From: a virus
Lineage: Duplodnaviria > Caudoviricetes
Length of the DNA stretch: 55,699 bases
Direction: 5' to 3' (one strand)
IMG/VR virus record: IMGVR_UViG_3300032087_006210
Span: 1 to 55,699 of that record
In this document: positions 25,894 to 40,173 of the stretch, piece by piece
Position numbering within the stretch: position 1 is the first letter of the stretch
Layout of the letters: the number at the start of each line of letters is the position of its first letter
Translations under genes and position numbers: made by a program
Notes under the pieces: generated by a model
The model's input: the letters and a program-made list of their open reading frames with translations, nothing else
Told to the model about the DNA's origin: nothing
Databases searched by the model: none

Positions 25894-26124
25894 TCATATT
25901 GTAATATTCAACAACTCAAATTGTGTTGATAGCTGTATTTTACTTGCAACATATTCCTCAAAAAGTGTTTTTTCGTTTGCGCGTCTTTGTAGCGAGTTGG
26001 CCGCAAAGTCAGCTTCACGCACCCGTCTGTCTTGCCACGATTGTATTCCCTTTGAGTATATATCATTATCTTGTATTGTCCATGGCTTATACAATTGGGA
26101 AACCAGTTGAACTTTCCCTATCAT
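25894..26124 (-). CDS. Hypothetical protein
   Basis: 76 aa coupled to cyclase stop. Confidence 0.5.
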   Translation of the reverse strand: MIGKVQLVSQLYKPWTIQDNDIYSKGIQSWQDRRVREADFAANSLQRRANEKTLFEEYVASKIQLSTQFELLNITI

Positions 26125-27662
26125 TCAAGTTCAACTCTTTTTGTACCTCTCCAGTCCGGAAACTCTGTTCTGCCGAAGCCCGGACCATATGCCGTCCACA
26201 TATGAACTGTAGACCCATGCTTAACTATGACCTGCCCCCAATCTTCGAACTTCAATCCGGGGATATCCATTTCACAAACATATTGATGCACATGATTAGA
26301 AACTAAAATATGATCATTATCCCCAGCGTCCATGCAACGCTGGGCCATGTTGATGCCATCGCCCGAAACATTAGGGTTATCGTTGATATCTTTTACCGGA
26401 ACTACCGGTCCGGTATACAAACCCATTCTTAATCCAATTTGAGCATGTTTATATACTTTTTTTCCTACGTCCACGGCGCATTTAAATGCAGCGTGAACCG
26501 AATTAAAAAAAACTAAAGCCATACCGTCTCCGGTAGGCAATATAATCAATTTACCTTGTCTTTGAGCTTGCTGAAAGCTTTGGGTGCCTTTTACATACGA
26601 TATAAGTTCATCTGTTACTTTTTTTTGCTCTGCCGTACTTTTTTTGGAATATCCAACTATATCCATAAAAAATGTATGAGCTTCGCACGGTCTATCGTAC
26701 TCGAGCGATTCGCCTTTTAATTTAAATGGATCTTCTCCCCACTTCCATTTAATAACTCGCTGTCTTTTTTTCTTTTCTTCTTCTTGTTGGATTTTCTTTC
26801 TAGCTTCGGCGGCCTGACTCTCTTTTTGTTTCATTTGCGCGGCTGCCGCCTCTAATCTTTTTATTTTATCAGATTTAGACTCGAATAATTTGCCCAGCAA
26901 TCCTTCTGGTTGCTTAGGAACATCTTCGTATGTTAGACCTTTGAATTCCGGCTCATCATTACCAACTTTAATTTGACCTGCGGATTTTTTATATTTTACT
27001 TGGCCTCTTGTAGAATGCTTCATTGCGCCTTTGGAAACCAAATATTTTAGCATCTCCTCATTTTCATTATCGTTTGCTATTTCCCAAGGATTAAGTTGGT
27101 CTAGCTCTGGCTCAAATGTAGATCCGTTTACATTAGCTTTGTTTTCTACTAATAATTTAACTATATCAAAATTACCTATCTCAACAGCATAATGTATGGG
27201 CATCCAACCTCTATTATCTCTTTCATTTATTTTTATAGAGTCATCTTCAAGTAAACATTCGATTTCATCGATATCTTGCATTTGAACTGCTTGATGCAAG
27301 TTCAATTCTTCTGCGCAAAATTCTCCACCCTTTGATATGAGATTGTTTAGTATTTTTGTTCGATGAGGACCTTCGGCAACGTCCATAGGATGAACAATGG
27401 AAATTTTATGTTCTTTATTATCTTCTAATGCCAAATTCCAATCATTTTGTTTTTTTGGTTGAGGAGGTTTGCTTTTTATGTTTGGATTGACACCTGCATC
27501 CAAAATAATTTGAACTATCTTGGCTTTACTATAGTTTGCAGCATAATGAAGCGGACTCCAGCCTTGTTCATCATCTAACGACAAAAAAGCCCTCTTGTTA
27601 GAGAGAGCTTTCTTGATTCCTTTGATATTGCCTGTACTCGCTAAAGTATGGATATCTCCCAT
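26121..27662 (-). CDS. Ankyrin-repeat plus class III nucleotide cyclase
   Basis: GWSPLHYAA/GWMPIHYAV ankyrins; FMDIVGYS, TGDG, LRMGLYTGPV, GDGINMAQR cyclase motifs. Confidence 0.9.
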   Translation of the reverse strand: MGDIHTLASTGNIKGIKKALSNKRAFLSLDDEQGWSPLHYAANYSKAKIVQIILDAGVNPNIKSKPPQPKKQNDWNLALEDNKEHKISIVHPMDVAEGPHRTKILNNLISKGGEFCAEELNLHQAVQMQDIDEIECLLEDDSIKINERDNRGWMPIHYAVEIGNFDIVKLLVENKANVNGSTFEPELDQLNPWEIANDNENEEMLKYLVSKGAMKHSTRGQVKYKKSAGQIKVGNDEPEFKGLTYEDVPKQPEGLLGKLFESKSDKIKRLEAAAAQMKQKESQAAEARKKIQQEEEKKKRQRVIKWKWGEDPFKLKGESLEYDRPCEAHTFFMDIVGYSKKSTAEQKKVTDELISYVKGTQSFQQAQRQGKLIILPTGDGMALVFFNSVHAAFKCAVDVGKKVYKHAQIGLRMGLYTGPVVPVKDINDNPNVSGDGINMAQRCMDAGDNDHILVSNHVHQYVCEMDIPGLKFEDWGQVIVKHGSTVHMWTAYGPGFGRTEFPDWRGTKRVELE

Positions 27663-29306: not shown

Positions 29307-29528
29307 TGTTGATTGTATATTTTTTTGTTTGAATTTAAATAGGGCCGCCGATTTTTTTGATTTAGTAAAATTTTGTTTTGTTTGGTTTTGGTTTACATAT
29401 TGAAAAAAAGCACCCCCCGCCGTTATTATAAACATATCATAGTATAAAATTTCAAAAAATGGGTAGGGTTATTGTCAAAAACAATAATTTTAGGCCTAAA
29501 ATTTTTTTAATTTTTTTTGATTTAGGGC

Positions 29529-29556
29529 TTGCAATTTTCTGTGGTTCTGCTATACT
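29529..29556 (+). promoter_or_regulatory. First sigma70-type early promoter of the island
   Basis: TTGCAA-16-TATACT, nearly identical to promoters at 31448 and about 32666. Confidence 0.8.
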
Positions 29557-29601
29557 GTTTTCAGCAAGCGGGGGAAGACCCGCACAACATAAAAAAAAGT
29601 T

Positions 29602-29748
29602 ATGAAAGACATGAACAATACAGATAAGATGGAGCAGGGTTACGAGGAAGTTTGCACCGGATGCGGCGAGACAGTTTGCTTGTCAAAAGAAGAGCATGAT
29701 CAATGGGATCACGGATTCGACAACTTCATGTGCTGGGAGTGCGAATAA
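29602..29748 (+). CDS. 48-aa zinc-finger protein (not in ORF track)
   Basis: CTGC...CWEC; AAAGTTATG start after a hairpin leader. Confidence 0.7.
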   Translation: MKDMNNTDKMEQGYEEVCTGCGETVCLSKEEHDQWDHGFDNFMCWECE

Positions 29749-29805
29749 AAAAAGTTGAAAAAACTTGTTGACTTTCAAAAAAATTCTGATATACTGATCC
29801 CCGTT

Positions 29806-30072
29806 ATGAGAGATAAGAAACCATTTTTAAATGTTACCTTCAAAGTGGAGAAGAACCCAACCTACACCGGCAACCACTTCTCGGCCCGTGTTAACCGTGT
29901 CAAGGGCTGCACTTTCCCGCTTGGCACAACCGAGCAGGAAATGATCGACCAGTACCACAACCAAGTGGTGTTGGAGAAAGATATCGACGGCAACAAAGTT
30001 TTGGCTGGTGACATTCACCGCGTCGTTGAAATTGTCAACTGCTTTGAGGATCACGGCTACTTCAGCAAATAA
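29806..30072 (+). CDS. Early hypothetical protein
   Basis: TTGACT-16-TATACT-7-GTTATGAG start. Confidence 0.75.
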   Translation: MRDKKPFLNVTFKVEKNPTYTGNHFSARVNRVKGCTFPLGTTEQEMIDQYHNQVVLEKDIDGNKVLAGDIHRVVEIVNCFEDHGYFSK

Positions 30073-30125
30073 AAAAAAATTTCCTGTTGACTTTAACATC
30101 TGAATAGACAATAATTTTTCTGGTT

Positions 30126-30425
30126 ATGAGAACAAGAGACAATAACGAAACGGGCGGCTTCGAGCCGCATCAACGCAACCTCGGCGAAAAAGATTTCAGC
30201 AAGCGGCTGAACAATGAGGCCGAACGCTGCGAAGGAATGGCCAATATCAGCGCGGAAGACCTGCGCGGTATCAAGGAGGCTATCGCGGCGGGCTTCCAAA
30301 AGTTCATCCACAAAGACCGCAACATCTACGGCAAAAAAGTAGACCGTAGCCATATGCGCAACCCGTACAACGCGGGCAACTACAACTACGGCAGCAAAGA
30401 CCTGCCGAGCAACGGCACAATGTAA
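30126..30425 (+). CDS. Early hypothetical protein
   Basis: Own promoter, GTTATGAG start, hairpin after stop. Confidence 0.75.
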   Translation: MRTRDNNETGGFEPHQRNLGEKDFSKRLNNEAERCEGMANISAEDLRGIKEAIAAGFQKFIHKDRNIYGKKVDRSHMRNPYNAGNYNYGSKDLPSNGTM

Positions 30426-30491
30426 TCCTTGACGGGGTGCGCGCAAGCGCACCCCGTACTTGACAAACGAAATGCGAACATCTACAATGCC

Positions 30492-30719
30492 ATGAAGAAG
30501 CGAACGAAGAGCGAAGTCTTTAACGATTTTATCCAAGGAGAACCGGATATGCAGTTGAGAGAAAAATATTATATACAATGCTTTGACAAAAAAGTATTTG
30601 AAAAAGTGTCGGATGCACAAAAGCATGTTAAGAATCAGCAAAAGTATTACAAGACCAAGTCACGTATCTACCAATGCAAAATCTGTGGAAACTACCACAT
30701 CACAACAAAATTCAAATAA
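30492..30719 (+). CDS. Small zinc-finger protein
   Basis: YQCKICGNYHIT; TTGACA-17-TACAAT just upstream. Confidence 0.7.
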   Translation: MKKRTKSEVFNDFIQGEPDMQLREKYYIQCFDKKVFEKVSDAQKHVKNQQKYYKTKSRIYQCKICGNYHITTKFK

Positions 30720-30907
30720 TGAACCAAATAAACGTAAAGCCCGACCTAAAGGCAATTGAGCAAAAGATAAGAGAATTTAATCAACGATTCGACCCGCCCC
30801 GCGCAGAAAAAAAAGTTGAAAAAAAGTTATCAAAAGGGTTGACTCTGCGCTCAATATGGAATAAGCTTTTCTCAGCGGTTCGGAAGAACCCAAACACAAA
30901 AAAAGTT

Positions 30908-31123
30908 ATGATGACAACTGAACAAATCCTAAAGGAAATAGAGAGCGTACCACGCCACCACATCACCTACACTCGGCAGGATGGCCGCACCAACGAATAC
31001 ACGGTAGCCATCACCGAGCGTCACGCCGACCACATTATCGGCTACAAGTTCCAGAACGGCGAAAGCTGCGGCATTCGTCGATTCAACATCGACCAAATCG
31101 GTATCCTTGAGCCGGTCAGTTAG
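30908..31123 (+). CDS. Stand-alone WYL-like domain protein
   Basis: ITYTRQDG...IGY...IRRFNIDQI; own promoter TTGACT-17-TAAGCT; frame also open from 30719. Confidence 0.6.
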   Translation: MMTTEQILKEIESVPRHHITYTRQDGRTNEYTVAITERHADHIIGYKFQNGESCGIRRFNIDQIGILEPVS

Positions 31124-31335
31124 TGTAGACACCATGTGCATCTGGCGGGGCAGATGTAAAGCTAACCCCGACAATTTTGAGTCGGCGGAGTTAAATACCC
31201 CTGCGAGTTTTTATAGGCAGCTCGCGCCCGTTTTACTGCTGGTGGTGCGGCAGCGACTCAATAATCTGTGGACCCGTGTGTGCGTTGTCTACCTCATAAC
31301 AGTAAAACACCCCGCGAAAGCGGGGTGTTTTTTTT
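31124..31335 (+). ncRNA. Putative structured RNA ending in CCTCATAAC plus terminator
   Basis: Nested stems GTAGACA/TGTCTAC, TGCATCTG/CAGATGTA, TTGAGTCG/CGACTCAA, GCGAG/CTCGC; no credible ORF. Confidence 0.55.
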
Positions 31336-31356
31336 GAAAAAAAGTGAAGAAAAAGC

Positions 31357-31403
31357 TTGACGTCTAACGGCCGGCGGCCTTGCGCCCAAACGTTAGATGT
31401 CAA
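31357..31403. repeat. 47-bp dyad element copy 1
   Basis: TTGACGTCTAACG-GCCGGCGGCCTTGCGCCCAAA-CGTTAGATGTCAA. Confidence 0.95.
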
Positions 31404-31485
31404 CAAGAAAAATAAAAAAAGTTTTTTTATTTTTTTTAAAAAAAGGGTTGCAATTTTCTGTGGCTGTGCTATACTGTCTCCAGTT

Positions 31486-31629
31486 ATGAGAGATATGATT
31501 AAAAATGCTGAGTTTGCAAACTGGATACGCCAAGCGCAAAAAAAGGAATGGGAAATGATTCCCGAAGCCGAACGCCCCACATGGGAGCAGTTCAAACGCG
31601 GCTTAAAAAAGAAAAAAAATTCAAATTAA
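31486..31629 (+). CDS. Early hypothetical protein (47 aa)
   Basis: TTGCAA-16-TATACT-7-GTTATGAG. Confidence 0.65.
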   Translation: MRDMIKNAEFANWIRQAQKKEWEMIPEAERPTWEQFKRGLKKKKNSN

Positions 31630-31670
31630 CGCTTGCTTTTTTCTGAGAGTCTGATATACTTTTTTTCGTT

Positions 31671-31868
31671 ATGAGAGATATGTTTGATAATATGTACACG
31701 GTTCGGATTGCCAACTCTGGTGATGTTGCTGGTTTCGCACGTTCTCACGATGGTCTTGAAAAGGCCATCACGTTGGCCGCGCGGGAGGATACTGAGGTGA
31801 CCTTCGGCGGCGAGGTCGTTTGGCCGAATATACATTCTGCCACCATAAAGAATGGAGGTGCCAAATGA
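31671..31868 (+). CDS. Early protein, paralogue of 35492 gene
   Basis: Own promoter, GTTATGAG; FARSHDGLEKAITLA motif. Confidence 0.7.
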   Translation: MRDMFDNMYTVRIANSGDVAGFARSHDGLEKAITLAAREDTEVTFGGEVVWPNIHSATIKNGGAK

Positions 31869-32329
31869 TGTCGGCCAAATTAACAATGACCGGCAGCGAC
31901 GGATCGCGTTGCGTGGTGGACTTCGGTCTCGAAATGAGAGACCGTCCTTCCATCGATTGGCGCACACTTGAAAACGTTGAGTCAGCTTATACGTTCAGCG
32001 CGTCCGGTGAAATCTCAAATGATTCGTTTGGGCAAAATCTCGATGAAATGTATCGATTGAATGGTGATAACTATCTTTTTCGCCGTATATACAAATACTG
32101 GAAAAAATATCATCTAAATGATCTTCAAGCTGGCACTCAACAGCAAGCGGAAATTTTAAAAAAATGTCCATCAACAGATTACGATGATCGATGTGAATTT
32201 TTGAAAAAAAATGATCTGTATGTTGATCGCGGTTATACGTACGGCACAAAGTGGTTGACTCAAGTCATTCCCGACAATATAGTCAGCGAGATAAAAAAAT
32301 TGATAATTGAAGTGCGCGGCTGGAGTTAA
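31865..32329 (+). CDS. Phage hypothetical protein
   Basis: GGAGG SD, ATGA overlap; WKKYHLNDLQAGT...GYTYGTKWL. Confidence 0.7.
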   Translation: MMSAKLTMTGSDGSRCVVDFGLEMRDRPSIDWRTLENVESAYTFSASGEISNDSFGQNLDEMYRLNGDNYLFRRIYKYWKKYHLNDLQAGTQQQAEILKKCPSTDYDDRCEFLKKNDLYVDRGYTYGTKWLTQVIPDNIVSEIKKLIIEVRGWS

Positions 32330-32330
32330 A

Positions 32331-32540
32331 ATGAAAAAAATAATCTGTTTAGTTGGTGCGATCTGTTTAACAGGTTGCGTGGTTACCGAGAAGGAAATTG
32401 TGCATCGTAAAATATCGTTTGCCGATACTAACAGCGTCACAACGGTATATTATCCTCCGTCATGGGATAAGTTTGTCAAAGCTCCCGATGATGGCACGCC
32501 CAAAACTATGCTTGTGCGATTTGGTCAGGCGCTAGAATAA
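32331..32540 (+). CDS. Lipoprotein
   Basis: MKKIICLVGAICLTGC lipobox; terminator follows. Confidence 0.65.
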   Translation: MKKIICLVGAICLTGCVVTEKEIVHRKISFADTNSVTTVYYPPSWDKFVKAPDDGTPKTMLVRFGQALE

Positions 32541-32566
32541 AAAACGCACAAAGTGCGTTTTTTTTG

Positions 32567-32613
32567 TTGACGTCTAACGGCCGGCGGGCCGGCCGCGAAA
32601 CGTTAGATGTCAA
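32567..32613. repeat. 47-bp dyad element copy 2
   Basis: TTGACGTCTAACG-GCCGGCGGGCCGGCCGCGAAA-CGTTAGATGTCAA. Confidence 0.95.
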
Positions 32614-32704
32614 GCCTAAAATGCAAAAAATTTAAAAAAGTTTTTTTAAAAAAGTGAAAAAAGTGCTTGCAATTTTCTGAAGCTGTGATATACTGTTTTT
32701 CGTT

Positions 32705-32866
32705 ATGAGGGAAATCGACATCAAAATCCAAAAACTGGAAAAGGAAATCATGTTCGGCAAGTGGCTGGCCTTTGACCCGATCAAAGACCACCAGCTAAAA
32801 GTTCGTAAGTTTAACATCGAGAAGCGGAAGCTTCTCGATGCCGAAGCTCAAAAAAATAAAAAATAA
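32705..32866 (+). CDS. Early hypothetical protein (53 aa, not in ORF track)
   Basis: TTGCAA...TATACT-7-GTTATGAG; MREIDIKIQKLEKE... Confidence 0.65.
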   Translation: MREIDIKIQKLEKEIMFGKWLAFDPIKDHQLKVRKFNIEKRKLLDAEAQKNKK

Positions 32867-32908
32867 TTGTTGACTTTGAGCGCAAACTGTGATTTAATAA
32901 ACGGAGTT

Positions 32909-33148
32909 ATGAGGACGTACACGTTATACTGGAAGGACGAAGACACCAATAGGGTGCGCAGCGAAGAATTCTCCAACAAGACCGGTTGGGATCACTCTGC
33001 GATGAACGCGGCAATGGAGATGGCCGAAGAGGCCGACAAGAATGGGTTTCCGTGGGTGCTGGAAGAGGACGGTTGCCAAGTTGCCCACGGCAACAACGGC
33101 GACCTGCTCGGAGTCTATCGCTACCAAGGATTTCCCAAATTTGGCTAA
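32909..33148 (+). CDS. Early hypothetical protein
   Basis: TTGACT-17-TTTAAT-7-GTTATGAG. Confidence 0.7.
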   Translation: MRTYTLYWKDEDTNRVRSEEFSNKTGWDHSAMNAAMEMAEEADKNGFPWVLEEDGCQVAHGNNGDLLGVYRYQGFPKFG

Positions 33149-33195
33149 AAATAATTGTTGACTTTACCGAAAAACCTGATAAACTAATTTTTGTT

Positions 33196-33417
33196 ATGAG
33201 AGAAATCATGAACATATTCTATCGGCCCGAAATCCACAACGGGGTTATCAACAAGAACAACGACCTGCACAGCTATCGGATTGAGTTGGACGAATCTTTC
33301 GAGAATCGTTCAAACAACGAAAAGTTCGCTGGCATCGGCGGCACTTGCACCGAGACTGGCAAATACAAGCGGTTCCGCATGGATAGGTTGGAAGGTATGT
33401 TCCCCGTCGAAAACTAA
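33196..33417 (+). CDS. Second WYL-like small protein
   Basis: IFYRP...GTCTETGKYKRFRMDRLEG; own promoter and GTTATGAG. Confidence 0.55.
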   Translation: MREIMNIFYRPEIHNGVINKNNDLHSYRIELDESFENRSNNEKFAGIGGTCTETGKYKRFRMDRLEGMFPVEN

Positions 33418-33428
33418 AAATCAATAAA

Positions 33429-33908
33429 ATGAAAAAAATTCTTTTAAGCAAAAGTTTTAGAATCTTTTACTGGATCTGCTTGGCCATTGTTACCGTCTCT
33501 GCTTATGGAAACACGCACAAAAATCATCAACTCACTAGAGAGCAAAAAATTGTCGCCATTACCATTTTGGCGGAGGCCAGAGGGGAAGGGGAAGCGGGAA
33601 TGTATGCTGTTGGTGCTTGCATCGCTCAGAGAGCATTTGAAAGAAAACAAACCCCATCGGAGGTCTGTCTTAAAAAATGGCAGTTCAGTTGTTGGAACGG
33701 TAAAACCGTCAAAGACCTTGAGCATCTGTTGAAAGTACCGCAAGCCAAGTATGCAATTACCGTGGCCAAAAATGTCAAACATCTGTCGCGTGATTTCATC
33801 GGCTTCGCTAATCATTACCACGCAACATGGATGAAAAAGAAACCGTATTGGGCAAAAGGTCAAAAGCCTGTCAAAGTAATTGGACAACACGCATTTTACA
33901 AGCTATGA
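33429..33908 (+). CDS. Cell wall hydrolase, SleB/Hydrolase_2 family
   Basis: TILAEARGEG..GMYAV, QFSCWN, ANHYH, PYWA, IGQHAFY. Confidence 0.9.
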   Translation: MKKILLSKSFRIFYWICLAIVTVSAYGNTHKNHQLTREQKIVAITILAEARGEGEAGMYAVGACIAQRAFERKQTPSEVCLKKWQFSCWNGKTVKDLEHLLKVPQAKYAITVAKNVKHLSRDFIGFANHYHATWMKKKPYWAKGQKPVKVIGQHAFYKL

Positions 33909-34012
33909 AATCAATTAAGATAAACTGGAGTTTAGTTGACAAAAAAATTGAAATTGATATAGTCAAGGCACGCTTAAATCGTAACCGTAAATTAAAAAAG
34001 ATATTCAAATGA
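33905..34012 (+). CDS. Small basic protein
   Basis: ATGA-coupled on both sides. Confidence 0.4.
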   Translation: MKSIKINWSLVDKKIEIDIVKARLNRNRKLKKIFK

Positions 34013-34167
34013 AAAAACCATTGCCCGAACTGAACAGCGACGAAAAACTAATGCTGCGTTGTTACTTGAAAAAAATTATTCAGATTGGCGGCTTGTCCAA
34101 TCGCCTCGTCAAAATCATGGAATCGACTGACACAAAAACTCTGCAAAAAATTTCTTGTCCATCATAA
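34009..34167 (+). CDS. Small hypothetical protein (52 aa, not in ORF track)
   Basis: MKKPLPELNSDEKLMLRCYL... Confidence 0.45.
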   Translation: MKKPLPELNSDEKLMLRCYLKKIIQIGGLSNRLVKIMESTDTKTLQKISCPS

Positions 34168-34210
34168 CCTCATAACACTAAACACCCCGCTTCGGCGGGG
34201 TGTTTTTTTT
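34168..34210 (+). terminator. CCTCATAAC plus terminator
   Basis: CCTCATAAC-ACT-AAACACCCCGC-TTCG-GCGGGGTGTTTTTTTT. Confidence 0.85.
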
Positions 34211-34222
34211 CTAAAAAAAGTC

Positions 34223-34269
34223 TTGACGTCTAACGGTCGGCGGCGCCCCCGCGAAGCGTTAGATGTCAA
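34223..34269. repeat. 47-bp dyad element copy 3
   Basis: TTGACGTCTAACG-GTCGGCGGCGCCCCCGCGAAG-CGTTAGATGTCAA. Confidence 0.95.
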
Positions 34270-34352
34270 GCAAAAAAATAAAAAAAGTTTTTTTATTTTT
34301 TTTGGTATTAAGGGGTTGACATTCTCTGAGTTTGTGGTATTCTGATTCCGTT

Positions 34353-34508
34353 ATGAGGTTAGATCAACAGATCGCAGAGTTGGCCCAAGTTTCACTTGAG
34401 GAGGTTTTTCACAATGATCCCCACGCTCGCGCTGAATACGAGGCGCAGTGTGACATCTGGCGCGACGAAGCTATCGCCGCGCAGGATGAGGAGGTGTCCA
34501 ATGGGTAG
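34353..34508 (+). CDS. Early acidic protein (51 aa, not in ORF track)
   Basis: TTGACA-16-TATTCT-6-GTTATGAG; MRLDQQIAELAQVSLEEVF... Confidence 0.65.
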   Translation: MRLDQQIAELAQVSLEEVFHNDPHARAEYEAQCDIWRDEAIAAQDEEVSNG

Positions 34509-34719
34509 CCCGTTTGCCGATATCGATTGGGCGGACTATATGTCCACCTTTCCCACGGGCGACGCGCCCGCCAAGCGCAAGCCAGATCCGGCTTTTCCTG
34601 TGGCCGTGCGCCGTGCCGCTATGATGCTTTGGCTGAATGAATTCAAGCCCACCAAAAGCCCAAAAAAATTGGCTGAATTGGAAAAATTTTCTTTACTTGT
34701 TGAAAAATTTGTGCGATAA
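34501..34719 (+). CDS. Early hypothetical protein
   Basis: GAGGAGG SD then MGSPFADIDW. Confidence 0.55.
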   Translation: MGSPFADIDWADYMSTFPTGDAPAKRKPDPAFPVAVRRAAMMLWLNEFKPTKSPKKLAELEKFSLLVEKFVR

Positions 34720-34730
34720 TCTTTTTTGTT

Positions 34731-35072
34731 ATGAGAGAAATGAAAACCTATAAGTTCAAGCAGACCGACATGACACCGGAAGGTTTGCAGATAATCGAGG
34801 ACGGTCATGAGTTTTATTATGACCCCGAGGTCGAGCACGAGGATGATGTCAGTAAGATCTGGCACGACATCCATTGTGCTGTCACCACCAAGCGCGTGTT
34901 CCATCTCGACTGGTCGCCGTACTCCAAACCCTCCAGCATCGAACTGGAAATGTGGTTCTCGCTCGGCTGTCCTAATCGTTGGACTATCAACGACGGCAAA
35001 AGCGTCGGCAGCCTGACTAGGAAGCGGCTGCTCGAGGCGATGGGCCGCAACCTCAGTATCGAAGGATACTGA
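34731..35072 (+). CDS. Early hypothetical protein
   Basis: GTTATGAG start; EHEDDVSKIWH. Confidence 0.7.
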   Translation: MREMKTYKFKQTDMTPEGLQIIEDGHEFYYDPEVEHEDDVSKIWHDIHCAVTTKRVFHLDWSPYSKPSSIELEMWFSLGCPNRWTINDGKSVGSLTRKRLLEAMGRNLSIEGY

Positions 35073-35078
35073 GGTACG

Positions 35079-35152
35079 CGCGGGGTAGCCAAGTGGTAAG
35101 GCGGGAGTCTGCAAAACTCTTATCGGCGGTTCGATTCCGCCCCTCGCGTCCA
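35079..35152 (+). tRNA. tRNA-Cys(GCA)
   Basis: Cloverleaf: CGCGGGG/CCTCGCG acceptor, GGAGT-CTGCAAA-ACTCT anticodon arm, TTCGATT T-loop, U73 and encoded CCA. Confidence 0.95.
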
Positions 35153-35172
35153 AATTTTTTTTAAAAAAAGTC

Positions 35173-35219
35173 TTGACATCTAACGCTGGGCGGGCACGCC
35201 GCGAACGGTTAGAAGTCAA
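35173..35219. repeat. 47-bp dyad element copy 4
   Basis: TTGACATCTAACG-CTGGGCGGGCACGCCGCGAAC-GGTTAGAAGTCAA. Confidence 0.95.
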
Positions 35220-35301
35220 ACAAAAAACAAAAAATAAAAATAAATTTTTTTTCATTTTAGGGGTTGACTTATCTGAAAAATGCTGTATACTGATTTCTGT
35301 T

Positions 35302-35457
35302 ATGAGAGATAATGTTACTTGTGAGGAGGTTTTTGAGTTGCACGCGGATTCATGGGTTGCGGACGTTACTGTCCCGAACGGCTTCGACGATGTCGAGGCC
35401 GAGGCCGATGATCGGTGCTGGTGCAAGTTTTTTGAGTCATGCTCTGAATGCGCTTGA
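35302..35457 (+). CDS. Small acidic Cys-rich early protein
   Basis: TTGACT...TATACT-7-GTTATGAG; CWC...CSEC. Confidence 0.65.
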   Translation: MRDNVTCEEVFELHADSWVADVTVPNGFDDVEAEADDRCWCKFFESCSECA

Positions 35458-35491
35458 CTTTTTTTTAAATTTTGATATACTGTTTTTTGTT

Positions 35492-35707
35492 ATGAGGATT
35501 CATGCCAAATACTTTGTTGAGGTCAAGTCCGCCACCGGTCGGCTTGAGTTTGTCCATTGGTTCGCTCCGAGCCACGAGGGTCTTGAGGCTGCGATCACTT
35601 GCGCCCGTGAGGCCAAGTCCGCCGTCAAGTGCAAGGTCGCCCCGTGCGACCTGTCCAACTCTCCGTACGATTGGGAAATCGTATGGGAAGATCCCGAAAA
35701 AAATTAA
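35492..35707 (+). CDS. Early protein, paralogue of 31671 gene
   Basis: Own promoter, GTTATGAG; FAPSHEGLEAAITCA. Confidence 0.7.
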   Translation: MRIHAKYFVEVKSATGRLEFVHWFAPSHEGLEAAITCAREAKSAVKCKVAPCDLSNSPYDWEIVWEDPEKN

Positions 35708-35716
35708 TTTTTTTCG

Positions 35717-35763
35717 TTGACATCTAACGGCCGGCGGGGTCGCCGTGACAGATTAGATGTTTT
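35717..35763. repeat. 47-bp dyad element copy 5 (degenerate right arm)
   Basis: TTGACATCTAACG-GCCGGCGGGGTCGCCGTGACA-GATTAGATGTTTT. Confidence 0.9.
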
Positions 35764-35894
35764 TTTATAATTGCCTGATTATCAACATATTACAAAAGTA
35801 TAATTTATATATTTCAGGTTATTTAGTATTTATGTATTTACTATTTACTATTTCAGAGATTACTATTTGCAATAAAATAATTTATAGATAAAAT

Positions 35895-35924
35895 AAAAAA
35901 CCCCTCCCTTGCGGGAGGGGTTTT
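35895..35924. terminator. Terminator, minus strand or bidirectional
   Basis: AAAAAACCCCTCCC-TTGC-GGGAGGGGTTTT. Confidence 0.85.
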
Positions 35925-36080
35925 ATCGAACTATCCCCAATGCTAACCAGCGGAAACCTAAATGAAATACATCATGTATATAATAACAATGGTAACTTGT
36001 AACGCTCACACCGGAGCCCGACACCTCCCGCCCCAGATGGCTAGCAGATTCTGGGACGGGAGTGGGTTGTTGGCTGCGGC

Positions 36081-36314
36081 TTAGTTGCCGTTGGCCATAC
36101 GGGTCACGGTAGCCTTGTGGCCACGGTACTCGTAATCGGTCAGCTTGAACTGGCGACGAACAGCAGACTTGCTCTTGCCGGAGCGGATCGCGGCGCGAAT
36201 GTTGTTGCTGCGGTCGTTGCCTGTAGCAGTCGCACGGCGAGACGTCGGAGTCTCGGTCAATGCGTCAACTACTGCGCTGACGATTTTGGTAAGTTGGGAT
36301 TCAGTCAATTTCAA
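36081..36314 (-). CDS. Small basic HTH-like protein
   Basis: AAAGGA SD, TTG start, promoter TTGACA-17-CAAACT; IRAAIRSGKSKSAVRRQFKL. Confidence 0.65.
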   Translation of the reverse strand: MKLTESQLTKIVSAVVDALTETPTSRRATATGNDRSNNIRAAIRSGKSKSAVRRQFKLTDYEYRGHKATVTRMANGN

Positions 36315-36439
36315 TTGAATATTCCTTTCATTACATGGTTAGCATCAGGGCCACTTGGCCAGCACGCGAATGCTCCGTTATGCATCCCGCACTCCAAAAA
36401 GTTTGCACTAGTGTCTTCATGATGTCAACGATTAATCCA

Positions 36440-36538
36440 AACTTTTTTTGTGTTTTTCTTTCCGGGTGTACTTCGTTTTATCCCGGTGCACCACTGCAGG
36501 TGGCGCACTAAGTTTACGTATCTTCTTCCATATGTCAA
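36440..36538 (-). ncRNA. Promoter plus putative small two-hairpin RNA
   Basis: TTGACA-16-TAAACT then GCGCCAC/GTGGTGC and CCGGG/CCCGG stems; no ORF. Confidence 0.4.
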
Positions 36539-36656
36539 CAAGTTTTTTCAATTTAATTTTTTGATTTAATGTGTAGCATAATAGCAAACAATAAACCCCC
36601 CAATAATATAACTGCTAAATACACGGCCTGAAATATACTCGGTTGCTCGGTTCATG

Positions 36657-37598
36657 TCAAGCGTAACCTCCGCCGTGATGGGCCTTGATCGCACCGACTT
36701 GAGCCGGTGTGCATTTGTACATATCGCACAACTCATCACGGGTAAAACGAAAATATTTTAAATCTGAGGCAAGCTGAGATTTTTTCGAGTCGCTCAACGG
36801 CGCAGATTTTGGAGATTTTGGAGTGGCGCGGTTGATGCGCGAACGAATAGGATTGCAAACCTTCAAAACATCAGCACAATTGCTGAAGCCGATCATCATC
36901 ATCGGATGCTTTTGCGCTTGATACTCGACCGACATGATGCACTTGACCTTATTGCCCGTGCGTTCGTTAATGTAATCGACGACCACATCTGTGATGTGGT
37001 CGGCCATGATGCCGCCGCGCTCCTCAATCCTAGAATCAACAGCAGAAATAATTTCATCTGGCATACAAGACTTGGCAATGACGCAAGCGTCAAACGTGGC
37101 AAACACCAAACTATTATGGACAAAATTTTTGGGGTCAGTCACAATGTCCAAATTGGATTGACTCGGAACGCCCGTGAAATCATACCAAGCAGCAAAATTA
37201 TTTTTTGCGTGTTGGTTGCTGGGAATGTCACTCAAATGATATTCGCCGCTGAAATTAGGATAAAGATCGTTATCGTTACGCATAAAAGCGCGTGTCCCCG
37301 TTTGGGCGCAATATGTGGATTCGTCATTCTCAAAGCAATGCAAATTAATTTGGCCAGAATGCTTAACACCAAACATTGTGCTGATCTCGGACATTTGCAA
37401 ACTTCTAGCAGCAACAAAAGATTCAAAGTCCCAAAGTGTGGCTGGCAAACTGTAAACCGTGCCAACCTTCGCGGTGTATTTAGTGCCTTGCCTAGTCTTA
37501 ACAAAATTTTGCAAGCTATCTAGCCAAATGCTAAATGCTTTCATAACCCACACGCGCTGCTTGGCCTTTTCCTCGTTGACGCAAAGTGTCGTTTCCAT
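36657..37598 (-). CDS. Hypothetical protein, SAM-methyltransferase-like core with C-terminal HTH
   Basis: YSLP..., HCFEND, AAWYDFTG, VFATF pattern; leaderless ATG after TTGACT-16-TAAGAT. Confidence 0.45.
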   Translation of the reverse strand: METTLCVNEEKAKQRVWVMKAFSIWLDSLQNFVKTRQGTKYTAKVGTVYSLPATLWDFESFVAARSLQMSEISTMFGVKHSGQINLHCFENDESTYCAQTGTRAFMRNDNDLYPNFSGEYHLSDIPSNQHAKNNFAAWYDFTGVPSQSNLDIVTDPKNFVHNSLVFATFDACVIAKSCMPDEIISAVDSRIEERGGIMADHITDVVVDYINERTGNKVKCIMSVEYQAQKHPMMMIGFSNCADVLKVCNPIRSRINRATPKSPKSAPLSDSKKSQLASDLKYFRFTRDELCDMYKCTPAQVGAIKAHHGGGYA

Positions 37599-37687
37599 GC
37601 ACAAAATCTTACTACATAGACAGATAGAGTCAACCGTCTTTTTAAAAAAAATTTTAAAAAAAACTTACCGAAGGGAAGTTTTTTTGC

Positions 37688-37734
37688 TTGACATCTAACG
37701 GCCGGCGGGCCGGCCGCGAAACGTTAGAAGTCAA
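37688..37734. repeat. 47-bp dyad element copy 6
   Basis: TTGACATCTAACG-GCCGGCGGGCCGGCCGCGAAA-CGTTAGAAGTCAA. Confidence 0.95.
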
Positions 37735-37868
37735 GGAAAAAATGCACCTCCGGTGCATTTTTTTTGAGTGTAATTTTTTTTCGATTATTGTGTTTTTTAT
37801 GTTGCAATTCATCTCCAAATGGTGCATCATTTTTTCGTTGGCAATGAGGTCAACACCCTATCAAAGTT

Positions 37869-38636
37869 ATGACAGGTTTAATGTTACACTGCGGGGCGAA
37901 CCGAGTCGAGTACGGCGAAGTTCAGGATTCCGTGACGCCCGAGGCAACTCGGACGCACACGCCCATCCCCCATTCCCACCTCGTTGACCTAGTTCGCGAT
38001 GGTTTGGGCCGTGCGAATATGGCTATCCTTGAGGAAAGTCATGCTCTCACTCACGATGCAAATCGGTACTTCGGTTTGTTTCGCATCGGCACTGGTAGCG
38101 AATCCAGTGAATCTCAGGATTACGGTGCAGTCATGGGGCTGCGTAATTCTCACGACAAAACTTTTCCATCTGCGCTTGCGTTTGGTGCGAATGTTTTTGT
38201 CTGCGACAACCTCTCCTTCAACGGCGAGGTCAAGTTAGGCCGTAAGCATACGGTTCACATCCTCCGCGATTTGCCACAGTTGGTGTCCCGCACCATCGGC
38301 AAGTTGGGTGACGCATGGGGTTTGCAGAAGCAACGCTTCAACGCATACCGCGATCACGGGCTGTCCCGTTCCGAGGCGCACGATGTTATCATCGAGGCGT
38401 TCCGCGCTGGTGCTTGTACAAGCACGCAGATTCGCAAGGTGGTTGATCAATGGCACGCGCCAAACCACCCTGAGTTCAAGCCGCGCAATGCGTGGTCAAT
38501 GTTCAATGCCTTCACCGAGGTGTTGAAAGGCAACCTCAACGAGTTGCCCAAGCGCACGCAAGCTCTCCATGGTTTCATGGACGGTCACTGCGGGGTCAAG
38601 TTCGAGCGTCAGGCTGACGTCGTGCTGGAGGCCTAA
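37869..38636 (+). CDS. DUF932 family protein
   Basis: GLRNSHDKT...GANVFVCDNL...RKHT, NAWSMFNAFTE. Confidence 0.85.
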   Translation: MTGLMLHCGANRVEYGEVQDSVTPEATRTHTPIPHSHLVDLVRDGLGRANMAILEESHALTHDANRYFGLFRIGTGSESSESQDYGAVMGLRNSHDKTFPSALAFGANVFVCDNLSFNGEVKLGRKHTVHILRDLPQLVSRTIGKLGDAWGLQKQRFNAYRDHGLSRSEAHDVIIEAFRAGACTSTQIRKVVDQWHAPNHPEFKPRNAWSMFNAFTEVLKGNLNELPKRTQALHGFMDGHCGVKFERQADVVLEA

Positions 38637-38668
38637 CACCTTGGCCCTCCCTGCGGGGAGGGCCATGT

Positions 38669-38710
38669 CCTCATAACGCAAACCTACCCGCGCAAGCGGG
38701 TAGGTTTTTT
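38669..38710 (+). terminator. CCTCATAAC plus terminator
   Basis: CCTCATAAC-GC-AAACCTACCCGC-GCAA-GCGGGTAGGTTTTTT, preceded by a hairpin at 38642-38665. Confidence 0.85.
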
Positions 38711-38734
38711 CTTTGAATTTTTTTGATTTTTCCC

Positions 38735-38781
38735 TTGACATCTAACGGCCGGCGGGCCGCCCGCGAAGCGTTAGAAGTCAA
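38735..38781. repeat. 47-bp dyad element copy 7
   Basis: TTGACATCTAACG-GCCGGCGGGCCGCCCGCGAAG-CGTTAGAAGTCAA. Confidence 0.95.
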
Positions 38782-38849
38782 CCAAAAACTTTTTTAAAAA
38801 AAGTTTTTTTAAAATTTGACATTCGGCCGCTTTACTGTAGACTTGGGGC

Positions 38850-39059
38850 ATGGAAACAAATAAGAGCCATCAAATGGAATCTTTTCTTGAAAACATGGGC
38901 CAGCAATTGTTTGGCCGCAGTCGCGAGGTTTCTTCCGACAACCAATTGTGCATTTCATGCGGCGCAGATGCAAATCATTTCCGTGATGAAATTTCACGCA
39001 AAGAGTACGGCATATCTAAGCTGTGTCAAACGTGTCAAGATTCTGTGTTTGGGGGTTGA
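38850..39059 (+). CDS. Small zinc-binding phage protein
   Basis: CISC...FRDEISRKEYGISKLCQTCQD; leaderless after TTGACA-16-TAGACT. Confidence 0.75.
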   Translation: METNKSHQMESFLENMGQQLFGRSREVSSDNQLCISCGADANHFRDEISRKEYGISKLCQTCQDSVFGG

Positions 39060-39093
39060 CATTTGCACAGATAGCTGTTAAATTTTTTTTGTT

Positions 39094-39726
39094 ATGAGAA
39101 TGACCGTCAAAGAAGTCACACAGAAAGTTGGTTCGTTGTCCAAGCCGTCCAAGATGCCGGGCCACGGATACAGCACGCCAGCAAAAGATTGTATCACGGG
39201 CAGCAAGCTGGCCAAGATAGTTGATTCTATCTGTTCAATTTGCTACGCCAAAAAAGGCCGTTATGTTTTTCCGAATGTTATCGCGGCAATGGAAAAACGG
39301 TTAAAATCTTTAAGTAGTTTGCATTGGGTGGACTACATGGTTTTTCTTATCGGCAAGCAAGAGAAGAGCGGATATTTTCGCTGGCATGATAGCGGCGATG
39401 TTCAAGGTGTCTGGCATCTTGAGAAGATTGCAGAGGTTGCAAGGCGATTGCCCAACATTAAATTTTGGTTGCCAACCAGAGAATACGGTTTCGTGCGGGA
39501 GTGGATGAAATTCGCTAAAGTGCCAAAAAATTTGACAATAAGACTGTCCGCTTACATGATAGACGGCAAGCCGCCAACTAGCTTGGCAAAAAAATTAGGA
39601 TTAACAACAAGCGGTGTTTCTCCTGACGGGTTCAACTGTCCAGCCTCAAAACAGGACAACCAGTGCGCCGAGTGCCGCGCTTGTTGGGACGGTTCGGTTG
39701 AGAATATCAATTACAAAAAGCACTGA
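39094..39726 (+). CDS. GP88-like Cys-rich protein (radical-SAM-related)
   Basis: CSICYAKKGRY, FRWHDSGD, WLPTRE, CPA...CAECRACW. Confidence 0.8.
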   Translation: MRMTVKEVTQKVGSLSKPSKMPGHGYSTPAKDCITGSKLAKIVDSICSICYAKKGRYVFPNVIAAMEKRLKSLSSLHWVDYMVFLIGKQEKSGYFRWHDSGDVQGVWHLEKIAEVARRLPNIKFWLPTREYGFVREWMKFAKVPKNLTIRLSAYMIDGKPPTSLAKKLGLTTSGVSPDGFNCPASKQDNQCAECRACWDGSVENINYKKH

Positions 39727-39733
39727 GGTTGAT

Positions 39734-39763
39734 AAAAAAAATCTCCGAAAGGAGATTTTTTTT
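39734..39763 (+). terminator. Intrinsic terminator
   Basis: AAAAATCTCC-GAAA-GGAGATTTTTTTT. Confidence 0.85.
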
Positions 39764-39765
39764 CC

Positions 39766-39812
39766 TTGACATCTAACAGGCTGCGGGGTCGCCGCGCCGC
39801 GTTAGATTACAA
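39766..39812. repeat. 47-bp dyad element copy 8 (degenerate)
   Basis: TTGACATCTAACA-GGCTGCGGGGTCGCCGCGCCG-CGTTAGATTACAA. Confidence 0.9.
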
Positions 39813-39972
39813 ATTTATTAAAATTTTATAATTATATATCGCGCCCTTTATTTGTTATTAAGTTATTTATAATTCACTTATTTGTATTTGCCTTATTTAC
39901 AATTTATTTATTTACAATTATATTATTTACTTATTTAGTGTTTATTTATTTAGCTTTTTATTATTTACAATT

Positions 39973-40173
39973 CTATTTTTTATCCGGCCCATTATATATT
40001 ATTACATTGACATATTCGCTATCTTCGTAATCGTTGAGTGCCATGTTGCCGGTCGCCGCTTCCCACATACGAGAGATCTTCACCTTGTTGGAGGTCGTGG
40101 AGCTTTGCTCCACGACCTCCCTCCGCATATCCTCGATATGCTTACGCTGTTTTTGACTTGACATCTGTATCAA
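39973..40173 (-). CDS. Hypothetical protein
   Basis: 66 aa downstream of RuvB-like gene. Confidence 0.5.
   Translation of the reverse strand: MIQMSSQKQRKHIEDMRREVVEQSSTTSNKVKISRMWEAATGNMALNDYEDSEYVNVIIYNGPDKK

Follow-up and report, generated by a model that had tools for sequence, protein, structure and literature searches.

How does a phage start protein synthesis on early messages that carry almost no leader and usually no Shine–Dalgarno (SD) sequence, and could it silence all of them together? The question is raised by the virus record IMGVR_UViG_3300032087_006210 (Duplodnaviria; Caudoviricetes), whose 55,699 bases are the whole record for this phage genome and were analysed at full length as the window. 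Between positions 29803 and 39098, a first-pass annotation had noticed twelve genes that open with GTT-ATG-AG, together with the reverse complement of this opening ahead of terminators at the 3′ ends of gene cassettes. We refer to the 8-mer GTTATGAG (RNA form GUUAUGAG) as the tag and to its reverse complement CTCATAAC (9-nucleotide form CCTCATAAC) as the anti-tag. The properties of the two motifs suggest a mechanism, not described so far, by which early protein synthesis would be initiated or shut down. The interpretation that we put forward, tentatively and as one that may well prove wrong, is that a 5′-terminal tag GUUAUGAG(R), where R is a purine, marks a distinct class of early mRNAs, is matched to the anticodon loop of the initiator tRNA and is masked by seeds located at mRNA 3′ ends.

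A start tag held at a fixed distance from promoters

All twelve gene starts correspond to + strand matches to the tag. A count of the motif against expectation, which the first-pass annotation had proposed, yields 16 matches on both strands of the window where 1.44 are expected (standard deviation 1.18; maximum of 5 in 100 shuffles). Each of the twelve tags is preceded by a predicted promoter of the sigma-70 type, with a −35 element (TTGACT, TTGCAA and similar sequences), a spacer of 16–17 nucleotides (nt) and a −10 element (TATACT and similar sequences) that is extended by TGn in 10 of the 12 cases; promoters and terminators were called with purpose-written rule-based scripts, and the coordinates are collected in Table 1. 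The G of the tag lies 7 nt past the −10 box at ten tags and 6 nt past it at the other two (34350 and 39091), in agreement with the spacing of 6–7 nt noticed earlier. The remark that an SD is usually missing is likewise borne out, as the 9–10 nt between the −10 box and the ATG consist mostly of T-rich sequence plus GTT. The open reading frames (ORFs) that begin in this way encode 47–210 amino acids (aa), all starting Met-Arg, and the first 40 nt of the tagged mRNAs are predicted to be weakly structured (−0.9 to −5.9 kcal/mol). The internal genes of tag-led operons do have GGAGG (regions of 31846 and 34487).

The sequence GTTATGA also heads three window genes with long leaders and no SD (29599, 30905 and 37866), and the GTT-ATG-A context is thus used away from the 5′ end too. 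Two promoters in the window (29528–29610 and 30838–30915) have similar leaders of ~45 nt in which an A-run is followed by GTTATGA (GTTATGAA and GTTATGAT); the third long-leader gene begins at GTTATGAC (37866).

Conservation of the tag was followed in two comparison sets. The first comprises 11 non-redundant sources, no two of which have more than 7% of their 25-mers in common (no more than 3% for most pairs); promoters in them were predicted without reference to the tag. The second was obtained by a search with an early-gene protein family, which returned 80 metagenome loci, 45 of them non-redundant (249 kb); one of the two peptide patterns that fetched it begins MRD, which gives a slight bias to tagged copies of one gene, and the remaining ~200 tags of this set are independent of that pattern. 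Pattern and protein searches also turned up this arrangement in many IMG/VR contigs.

In the first set, the first ATG falls exactly 10 nt past the −10 element at 72 of 207 predicted promoters and 9–11 nt past it at 85. These 85 starts have the leader GTT in 80 cases, with U at −1 in 83 and U at −2 in 81, followed downstream of the AUG by A at +4 in 75, G at +5 in 64 and a purine at +6 in 75. Position −4 carries 0.22 bits, G being nearly absent there, and conservation declines beyond +5. That conservation ends at the G of the leader would be expected if this base were the 5′ end of the mRNA, and supports its placement there. Of 82 promoter-proximal tags from the window and ten loci, 70 have a 7-nt gap between the −10 element and the G. 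The second set gives the same picture, with a GTT leader at 201 of 210 promoter-proximal starts, the exact 8-mer at 171 of them, an ATG 10 nt past the −10 element at 169 of 320 predicted promoters, and a total of 288 occurrences of the 8-mer versus 6 for the reversed control. In two near-complete relatives the 8-mer is confined to one region of ~13 kb, often in two divergent arms; outside this region it stands near the level of the reversed-pattern control in both. A comparison of the 11 and 45 non-redundant sources for covariation between tag and anti-tag met with no lineage whose tag had changed.

The codon that follows the start indicates what is being conserved. Arginine occupies codon 2 in 68–77% of tag-led ORFs and is encoded there exclusively by AGR (AGA or AGG) in the two sets (75/75 and 189/189, or 264/264), whereas AGR accounts for 28% and 26% of the arginine codons at the other positions of these ORFs. 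Where codon 2 specifies serine, it is likewise AGY in 19 cases and TCN in one. A protein-level need for arginine at position 2 is ruled out by these two biases, and codon usage indicates that selection acts on the nucleotides G-U-U-A-U-G-A-G, the peptide not being the selected unit. The sequence comparison therefore supports a view of the tag as one 8-nt unit defined at the nucleotide level and placed at a fixed distance from promoters.

A truly leaderless class of genes coexists with the tagged one. At 29 predicted promoters of the first set the ATG lies 6–8 nt past the −10 element, and 23 of these 29 open ORFs of at least 50 aa. Such units are seen in the window (38817–39059 and at minus-strand promoters) and in the relatives L026–L035. 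This class calibrates the start site to 7–9 nt past the −10 element, and we infer that tagged transcripts have their 5′ end on the G, at position 8 and after a non-G base. By the same promoter geometry the tagged mRNAs are not strictly leaderless, since their ATG lies 3 nt beyond the position that it takes in the leaderless class. The coexistence also implies that the host can translate mRNAs beginning with AUG, and GUU...AG would thus mark a class rather than meet a necessity. As short leaders lower leaderless initiation several-fold (PMC8459731), the conserved 3-nt leader needs explaining. Most of the larger ORFs of tag-bearing genomes have no SD, and the triplets upstream of them are A-rich.

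Complements of the tag ahead of terminators

The anti-tag is present on the + strand at all three positions at which it had been reported (31292, 34168 and 38669), as is a second TCATAAC at 34162, which overlaps the stop codon of ORF 34009–34167. In total, CCTCATAAC has seven matches on both strands of the window versus 0.37 expected, the other four being tags that have G at +6, read on the opposite strand. Two details of the earlier description require adjustment. The anti-tags had been placed 2–4 nt before their terminators; we measure 7, 6 and 5 nt, and the shorter distances are obtained only if flanking A/U pairs are counted as part of the stem. Stems on both sides had been claimed for two anti-tags, and the upstream stem is clear at 38643–38664, while that of the 31292 site is a predicted one. 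A 47-bp element does follow each of the three anti-tags. The hairpins between them run into 6–8 T and, with the energies given in Table 1, have the properties of intrinsic terminators.

The association with terminators is a property of the family. When 8-mers are ranked by their frequency in the 18 nt ahead of each of 261 terminator hairpins of the first comparison set, CTCATAAC comes top together with its overlapping neighbours, with 13 occurrences versus 0 in the sense orientation. Within 24 nt upstream of hairpins it is found 14 times, where ~0.07 are expected by our estimate, and forms with one mismatch (ATCATAAC, TTCATAAC and others) fill that slot in 5 cases. In the second set it is again the commonest 8-mer ahead of hairpins (23 of 348, versus 2 in the sense orientation). 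The distance from anti-tag to hairpin is 1–8 nt across both sets, and the hairpins concerned have unrelated stems. Two of these terminator stems also occur in tag-less phages, where the anti-tag accompanies them in 0 of 37 rows, many of which come from one conserved family and are hence non-independent; in tag-bearing loci, all 10 rows of the same two stems carry the motif, 8 of them exactly and 2, from one phage, as ATCATAAC.

The anti-tag is predicted to be accessible, with a mean unpaired probability of 0.75 (n = 13), whereas 8-mers at matched positions of 247 other hairpins average 0.50 (p = 2e-4); in its predicted unpaired state it is flanked by two stems or forms part of a hairpin loop. 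A pyrimidine precedes it in 12 of the 13 cases of the first set and in 10 of 11 distinct-stem cases of the second, and a G in neither set (0/13 and 0/11). Because this pyrimidine matches the purine at position +6 of the tag, the complementarity spans 9 nt, ending at the presumed 5′ end of the mRNA. All 36 duplexes between a tag and an anti-tag of the window are calculated to form with −11.2 to −20.7 kcal/mol, compared with a background mean of −2.7 kcal/mol for 20-mers (1st percentile −10.0) and with −2.5 to −3.7 kcal/mol for untagged starts. As in small RNAs (sRNAs) derived from 3′ untranslated regions (3′UTRs), a candidate seed with 8–9 nt of complementarity over the target AUG is found on the sense strand of a 3′UTR, upstream of a Rho-independent terminator.

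Other identities for the anti-tag sites were considered. Minus-strand genes are ruled out there, the ORFs being only 2, 3 and 13 codons long, and a tRNA-gene remnant or attP is ruled out by the lack of any metZ likeness beyond the 8-mer. Over the tag and anti-tag regions of the window, no Rfam family was matched at its gathering score or at E ≤ 1 except for chance-level leader and sRNA matches. In the relative L031, a manA RNA motif (RF01745; 17735–17914 on the + strand; 56.3 bits versus a gathering score of 55.2; E = 1.4e-13), conserved in L032, immediately precedes a hairpin, anti-tag and terminator whose ortholog in the window is the 31292 site. The corresponding ~170-nt 3′ region of the window (31124–31291) gives no manA match at E ≤ 1; it shares a stretch of ~27 nt with the sequence 5′ of manA in relatives.

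Initiator tRNA identity and the readings of the motif pair

The tag has a second potential partner. The sequence CTCATAAC is identical, at 8 of 8 positions, to positions 32–39 of the Escherichia coli initiator tRNA (metZ reads ...GGG-CTCATAAC-CC...), and the tag is accordingly complementary to the whole initiator anticodon loop and C39 of that tRNA, from which the host's own may differ. Bacterial initiator tRNAs generally share this loop sequence. Given the ATG, we estimate the probability of a chance match of the flanks at about 1/256 (loop only) to 1/1024. Both flanks of the AUG thus extend the codon–anticodon complementarity into the loop of the E. coli sequence. Extension by a single base has precedent, as initiation in E. 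coli increases when a U at −1 of the mRNA pairs with the initiator tRNA base A37 (PMC10018350); no description of whole-loop pairing between an mRNA and the initiator tRNA was encountered in the literature searched. An unvarying tag in phages that are otherwise very divergent speaks for a partner that is external and fixed. The anti-tag, in turn, appears to track the tag and not the tRNA, because G never precedes it while the tRNA has G31.

In the arrangement that we tentatively prefer, a host RNA polymerase of the sigma-70 type would start at the G, 7–8 nt past the −10 element, and would produce an mRNA with a 3-nt leader, no SD and an AUG whose flanks are complementary to the entire anticodon loop of the initiator tRNA. 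Some early operons would end in a module composed of a single-stranded YCUCAUAAC (Y, pyrimidine) and a strong intrinsic terminator, and stable 3′ fragments carrying this module would pair in vivo, over 8–9 nt and mostly in trans, with the tags of early mRNAs. The seed would thereby cover the AUG, and the initiator tRNA and the ribosome would face a competitor for these nucleotides. The outcome would be negative feedback on, or shut-off of, early translation across the class, and truly leaderless and SD-led genes would be spared. Action in trans is favoured because the operon of 37869–38636 is without an exact tag, most tag-led operons are without an anti-tag, and 12 tags stand against 3 anti-tags.

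Several considerations weigh against masking by 3′-end seeds. Anti-tag and presumed targets are transcribed together, and simple repression would therefore operate from the onset of infection. Anti-tags are present in 3 of about 7 early operons of the window; of 20 metagenome loci that measure 5 kb or more and have three or more 8-mers, 10 contain a pre-terminator anti-tag, many of these loci being fragmentary. The 13 anti-tags of the first set are partly orthologous and fall into about 7 independent groups, which means that the p-values overstate the case for the flanking base, and the accessibility control was not matched for composition. A seed of 8–9 bp located 5–7 nt from the terminator stem would also be closer to it than in most described sRNAs. 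Moreover, the invariance of the tag fits a fixed host partner better than a private pair of phage RNAs, and the anti-tag could then be secondary.

The last consideration is the core of an alternative that we judge doubtful and yet substantial, namely that the tag is purely a translation-initiation signal, in which the GUU leader, the AUG and A+4 G+5 would pair with the full initiator loop (A38, A37, CAU, U33, C32 and perhaps C39) and permit efficient initiation close to the 5′ end without an SD. What the anti-tag does would then be unrelated or secondary; it might, for instance, mimic the loop or serve as a decoy for a factor by which the loop is recognized. Such a signal would account for the 8/8 identity of CTCATAAC to metZ 32–39 with its low chance probability, for the invariance of the tag across 56 divergent sources, which fits a universal host partner, and for the U at −1 in 83 of 85 starts, whose pairing with A37 has experimental support (PMC10018350). 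It would also provide the reason that a conserved 3-nt leader needs, given the cost of short leaders (PMC8459731), and would extend to the GTTATGA of the long-leader, SD-less genes at 29599, 30905 and 37866, where the G cannot apply as start site. GTT is, in addition, the upstream triplet in 24 of 504 first-ATG ORFs that have neither SD nor promoter, versus roughly 2% expected by our estimate. What it leaves unexplained is a complement that is single-stranded, lies before terminators in one orientation and is limited to tag-bearing phages. The base before the anti-tag, never a G as at position 31 of the tRNA, follows the tag instead, and, as the truly leaderless class shows, the host can do without the tag. 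On structural grounds it is sterically doubtful that +4 and +5 pair with U33 and C32 of a ribosome-bound tRNA, and the loop sequence was checked in E. coli only and may not be that of the host. A combined version appears unlikely to us: an initiation code in which GUUAUGAG would pair with C32–C39 and recruit fMet-tRNA and the ribosome with neither an SD nor strict leaderlessness, later to be switched off by YCUCAUAAC as a mimic of the tRNA loop. Were that the case, which again we think rather unlikely, early phage messages would gain priority, and the mimic would compete with the tRNA for the tag across the whole class.

Three further explanations carry less weight. The 5′ tag and the 3′ anti-tag of one transcript could form an intramolecular panhandle that protects the ends from nucleases or couples termination to translation, and 8 of the 13 anti-tags do have a promoter-proximal tag on their own strand, 0.8–3.2 kb upstream; duplex energies in the window are −11 to −21 kcal/mol. 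The chances of a panhandle are slight, however: the operon ending at 38669 opens with a long leader and GTTATGAC and has no exact tag, about 4 of 7 tag-led operons in the window have no anti-tag, several tags per operon face a single anti-tag, and the panhandle would block the AUG of the first cistron itself. Alternatively, a phage or host protein could bind GTTATGAG/CTCATAAC in the DNA either way round, repressing early promoters from positions +1 to +8 of the transcript and acting as a roadblock at terminators. Positions +1 to +8 are typical of repressor operators, Cluster A mycobacteriophages have stoperators, asymmetric 13-bp sites with a defined orientation (PMC3203893), and an invariant motif would suit a conserved protein. 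We nevertheless hold a DNA site to be improbable, in view of the strict opposite orientation at terminators (13 vs 0 and 23 vs 2), the fixed 1–8 nt to an RNA hairpin, the predicted single-strandedness in RNA, and a ninth base that obeys Watson–Crick and wobble logic; the non-A bases at +4 are mostly G (8/10 in the first set and 10/14 in the second), compatible with G:U wobble, and no candidate protein was identified. Finally, the motif might have no regulatory function and hitchhike on a promoter cassette spread by duplication and recombination, with anti-tags as inverted remnants of the cassette. The promoter-tag modules are indeed direct repeats, and related-strain contigs break at or beside them (29748, 29780, 29825, 32715 and 35494), but an invariant 8-mer between highly diverged promoter and coding flanks, the AGR at codon 2 in 264 of 264 cases, and anti-tags that adjoin no inverted promoter and precede unrelated terminator stems make this explanation, already disfavoured, very improbable.

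Features of the window, its phage family and known systems

Table 1. Predicted promoters, tags, anti-tags, terminators and repeat elements of the window, with the genes that follow or precede them (CDS, coding sequence)
Feature	Position	Strand	Gene or remark
Promoter, −35 TTGACT 29768, −10 TATACT 29790, TGn; tag 29803–29810	29768–29810	+	CDS 29806–30072, 88 aa, MRDKKPFL
Promoter TTGACT/AATAAT; tag 30123–30130	30087–30130	+	CDS 30126–30425, 99 aa
Promoter TTGCAA/TATACT, TGn; tag 31483–31490	31448–31490	+	CDS 31486–31629, 47 aa
Promoter TTGCTT/TATACT, TGn; tag 31668–31675	31633–31675	+	CDS 31671–31868, 65 aa; then SD-led internal genes
Promoter TTGCAA/TATACT, TGn; tag 32702–32709	32667–32709	+	CDS 32705–32866, 53 aa
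Promoter TTGACT/TTTAAT, TGn; tag 32906–32913	32870–32913	+	CDS 32909–33148, 79 aa
Promoter TTGACT/TAAACT, TGn; tag 33193–33200	33158–33200	+	CDS 33196–33417, 73 aa
Promoter TTGACA/TATTCT, TGn, 6-nt gap; tag 34350–34357	34316–34357	+	CDS 34353–34508, 51 aa
Promoter TTTACT/GATAAT; tag 34728–34735	34692–34735	+	CDS 34731–35072, 113 aa; tRNA-Cys next, 35079–35152
Promoter TTGACT/TATACT; tag 35299–35306	35264–35306	+	CDS 35302–35457, 51 aa, CEEVFE...CWCKFFESC family
Promoter TTGACT/TATACT, TGn; tag 35489–35496	35454–35496	+	CDS 35492–35707, 71 aa
Promoter TTGACA/TAAATT, TGn; tag 39091–39098	39056–39098	+	CDS 39094–39726, 210 aa, Pfam GP88
Untagged leaderless unit, TTGACA, 16 nt, TAGACT, 6 nt, ATG 38850	38817–39059	+	CDS 38850–39059, 69 aa
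Anti-tag 1, CCTCATAAC	31292–31300	+	End of ~170-nt non-coding 3′ region, 31124–31291
Terminator 1, hairpin CACCCCGCGAAAGCGGGGTG and T8	31308–31335	+	−16.7 kcal/mol
Anti-tag 2, TCATAAC, then CCTCATAAC 34168–34176	34162–34176	+	Predicted unpaired probability 0.95
Terminator 2, hairpin CACCCCGCTTCGGCGGGGTG and T8	34183–34210	+	−16.3 kcal/mol
Hairpin GGCCCTCCCTGCGGGGAGGGCC 38643–38664, ATGT, anti-tag 3 CCTCATAAC 38669–38677	38643–38677	+	3′ of DUF932 gene 37869–38636
Terminator 3, hairpin CCTACCCGCGCAAGCGGGTAGG and T6	38683–38710	+	−18.0 kcal/mol
47-bp element copies	31357–31403, 32567–32613, 34223–34269, 35173–35219, 37688–37734, 38735–38781, about 39766–39812, near 27574		

The window encodes a terminase large subunit, a rIIA homologue, ThyX, UvdE, glycosyltransferases and an ankyrin-repeat protein. 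No close DNA relative was found among 50,697 deposited phage records, and its terminase and rIIA have at most about 30% identity to those of any cultured phage; the phage with the best rIIA match, DSS3_MAL1, is without enrichment of the tag (3 vs 2 for the control). Two related IMG/VR contigs measure 144 kb (rated 90% complete) and 170 kb (rated 100%), and the window is therefore probably about one third of a marine phage genome of 145–170 kb. Further relatives of 29–77 kb have completeness ratings of 18–52%. Among the runs listed, the early region is present in at least 20 sequencing runs from 9 studies, 16 of which contain at least half of the sampled words of this region and are seawater, biofilm and ballast-water metagenomes. 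None of the runs listed is on record as RNA, and four with a presumptive RNA-Seq label consist of assembled contigs from related strains, in which no transcript starts or ends are seen.

A search for the host with the promoter-plus-tag pattern, covering one genome per prokaryote species, returned 42 loci from which no host emerged. Most of these are Clostridia without an ORF after the ATG, and three (L055, L056 and L067) are short contigs with phage-like N-termini that were binned into unrelated metagenome-assembled genomes (MAGs). In two Planctomycetia MAGs (L059 and L082) and one Acetothermia MAG (L093), lexA-like genes follow TGnTATACT, 7 nt and GTTATGAG, a promoter-to-start geometry that equals that of the phage tags. 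About a dozen loci in Lachnospiraceae and other Clostridia carry the pattern without an ORF and may represent a conserved RNA promoter. The best matches of the GP88-family protein are to Pelagibacter, Caulobacter and Roseobacter phages, a weak hint at the host.

Several other features of the region were noted. The promoter-tag modules recur in the window as direct repeats, and the loose ends of related-strain contigs at or beside them are consistent with exchange of early-gene cassettes at conserved linkers. The G+C content of the early region (about 30000–40000) is 41–46%, that of the rest of the window mostly 33–41% and up to 43%. The tRNA-Cys(GCA) gene within the early region is also found in 6 of 8 relatives scanned (L026, L027, L028, L029, L032 and L035). 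Between a terminator and the next promoter lies the 47-bp element, a palindrome with 13-bp arms TTGACRTCTAACG / CGTTAGAWGTCAA and a G+C-rich centre of 21 nt. Among the 11 sources it occurs only in the window (7 pattern matches) and in the closest relative, L031 (2 matches), a restriction that excludes it from the tag system; it may serve as a site for a regulator or represent a small mobile repeat. Eight overlapping copies of an A+T-rich repeat with a 15-nt period (TTATTTA...) lie 3′ of the last early operon (39825–39982), and a second A+T-rich block adjoins a bidirectional terminator (35760–35880); the two blocks are iteron-like and may mark a replication origin. The ankyrin-repeat protein (513 aa; 26121–27662 on the − strand) has at its C-terminus a weak match to an adenylate/guanylate cyclase catalytic domain (E = 2e-4), just under the Pfam cut-off.

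If the tag works through the initiator loop, the one-base quadruplet effect would become an initiation signal based on full loop pairing, which would explain efficient translation of SD-free mRNAs with a 3-nt leader and would bear on the choice of starts in general where an SD is missing. If the anti-tag is a seed, one very short RNA element would control a whole temporal class of viral genes and would offer synthetic biology a compact and portable translational switch. In practical terms, the motif pair marks the early regions of an abundant, uncultured family of marine phages and provides a handle for annotation and for the design of metatranscriptome studies. Literature searches by motif strings, extended anticodon pairing and leaderless phage early genes returned no description of such a system, subscription journals and supplements being outside their scope.

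Parts of the arrangement nonetheless resemble known systems. The c4 antisense RNA of phages P1 and P7, work on which is attributed to Citron and Schuster in 1992, is reportedly a processed RNA of 77 bases that derives from the same operon as its target and has short complementarity at the ribosome-binding region. It would thus share with the anti-tag a phage origin within the operon of the target and action on short complements at ribosome-binding regions; c4 is said to lie upstream of a single target operon, whereas the anti-tag would be a terminator-adjacent seed for a class with many promoters.

At the level of initiation, the tag resembles the quadruplet pairing with initiator tRNA in that the U at −1 complements A37 (PMC10018350), and extends the complementarity further. 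The published case concerns one extra base pair with modest effects (PMC10018350), whereas the phage tag complements the whole 7-nt loop and C39, is invariant, and occurs on mRNAs with a presumed leader of 3 nt, a comparison made at the sequence level. With leaderless mRNAs, for example those of Caulobacter, the tagged class has in common the missing SD, a start codon at or near the 5′ end and a promoter immediately upstream (PMC8459731); it differs from them in keeping a fixed 3-nt leader and two fixed bases past the AUG.

The nearest phage precedent for an invariant motif linked to starts would be the SAS/ESAS of Cluster K mycobacteriophages, found at start codons and with a partner that was unknown in that account (PMC3203893). 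Both are short, asymmetric and invariant, are located at the starts of many non-structural genes of unrelated families, are conserved across subclusters or divergent sources, and are suspected of a role in translation initiation through an RNA or protein partner yet to be named. The SAS, however, is a 13-bp GGGATAGGAGCCC-like motif that lies 3–7 bp upstream of the start and has an SD-like AGGAG core; it is not locked to promoters, has the start codon outside the motif, and, in the portion of the published description available, comes with no reported complement at terminators (PMC3203893). The tag is an unrelated 8-mer that contains the ATG and is without an SD-like core.

For the pair of motifs as a whole, the nearest precedent by analogy would be OppZ and CarZ of Vibrio cholerae, 3′UTR-derived sRNAs that repress their own operons (PMC7398697). 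The phage seed of 8–9 nt would differ in addressing a whole class of a dozen or more mRNAs through an identical 5′ tag that includes the AUG, in lying only 1–8 nt from the terminator stem, and in being borne by a phage and recognized here from sequence. The likeness to OppZ and CarZ is that, in both, a seed at the 3′ end of an operon lies by an intrinsic terminator and is complementary to the initiation region within the same regulatory unit, an arrangement by which regulator and target would be produced in proportion (PMC7398697).

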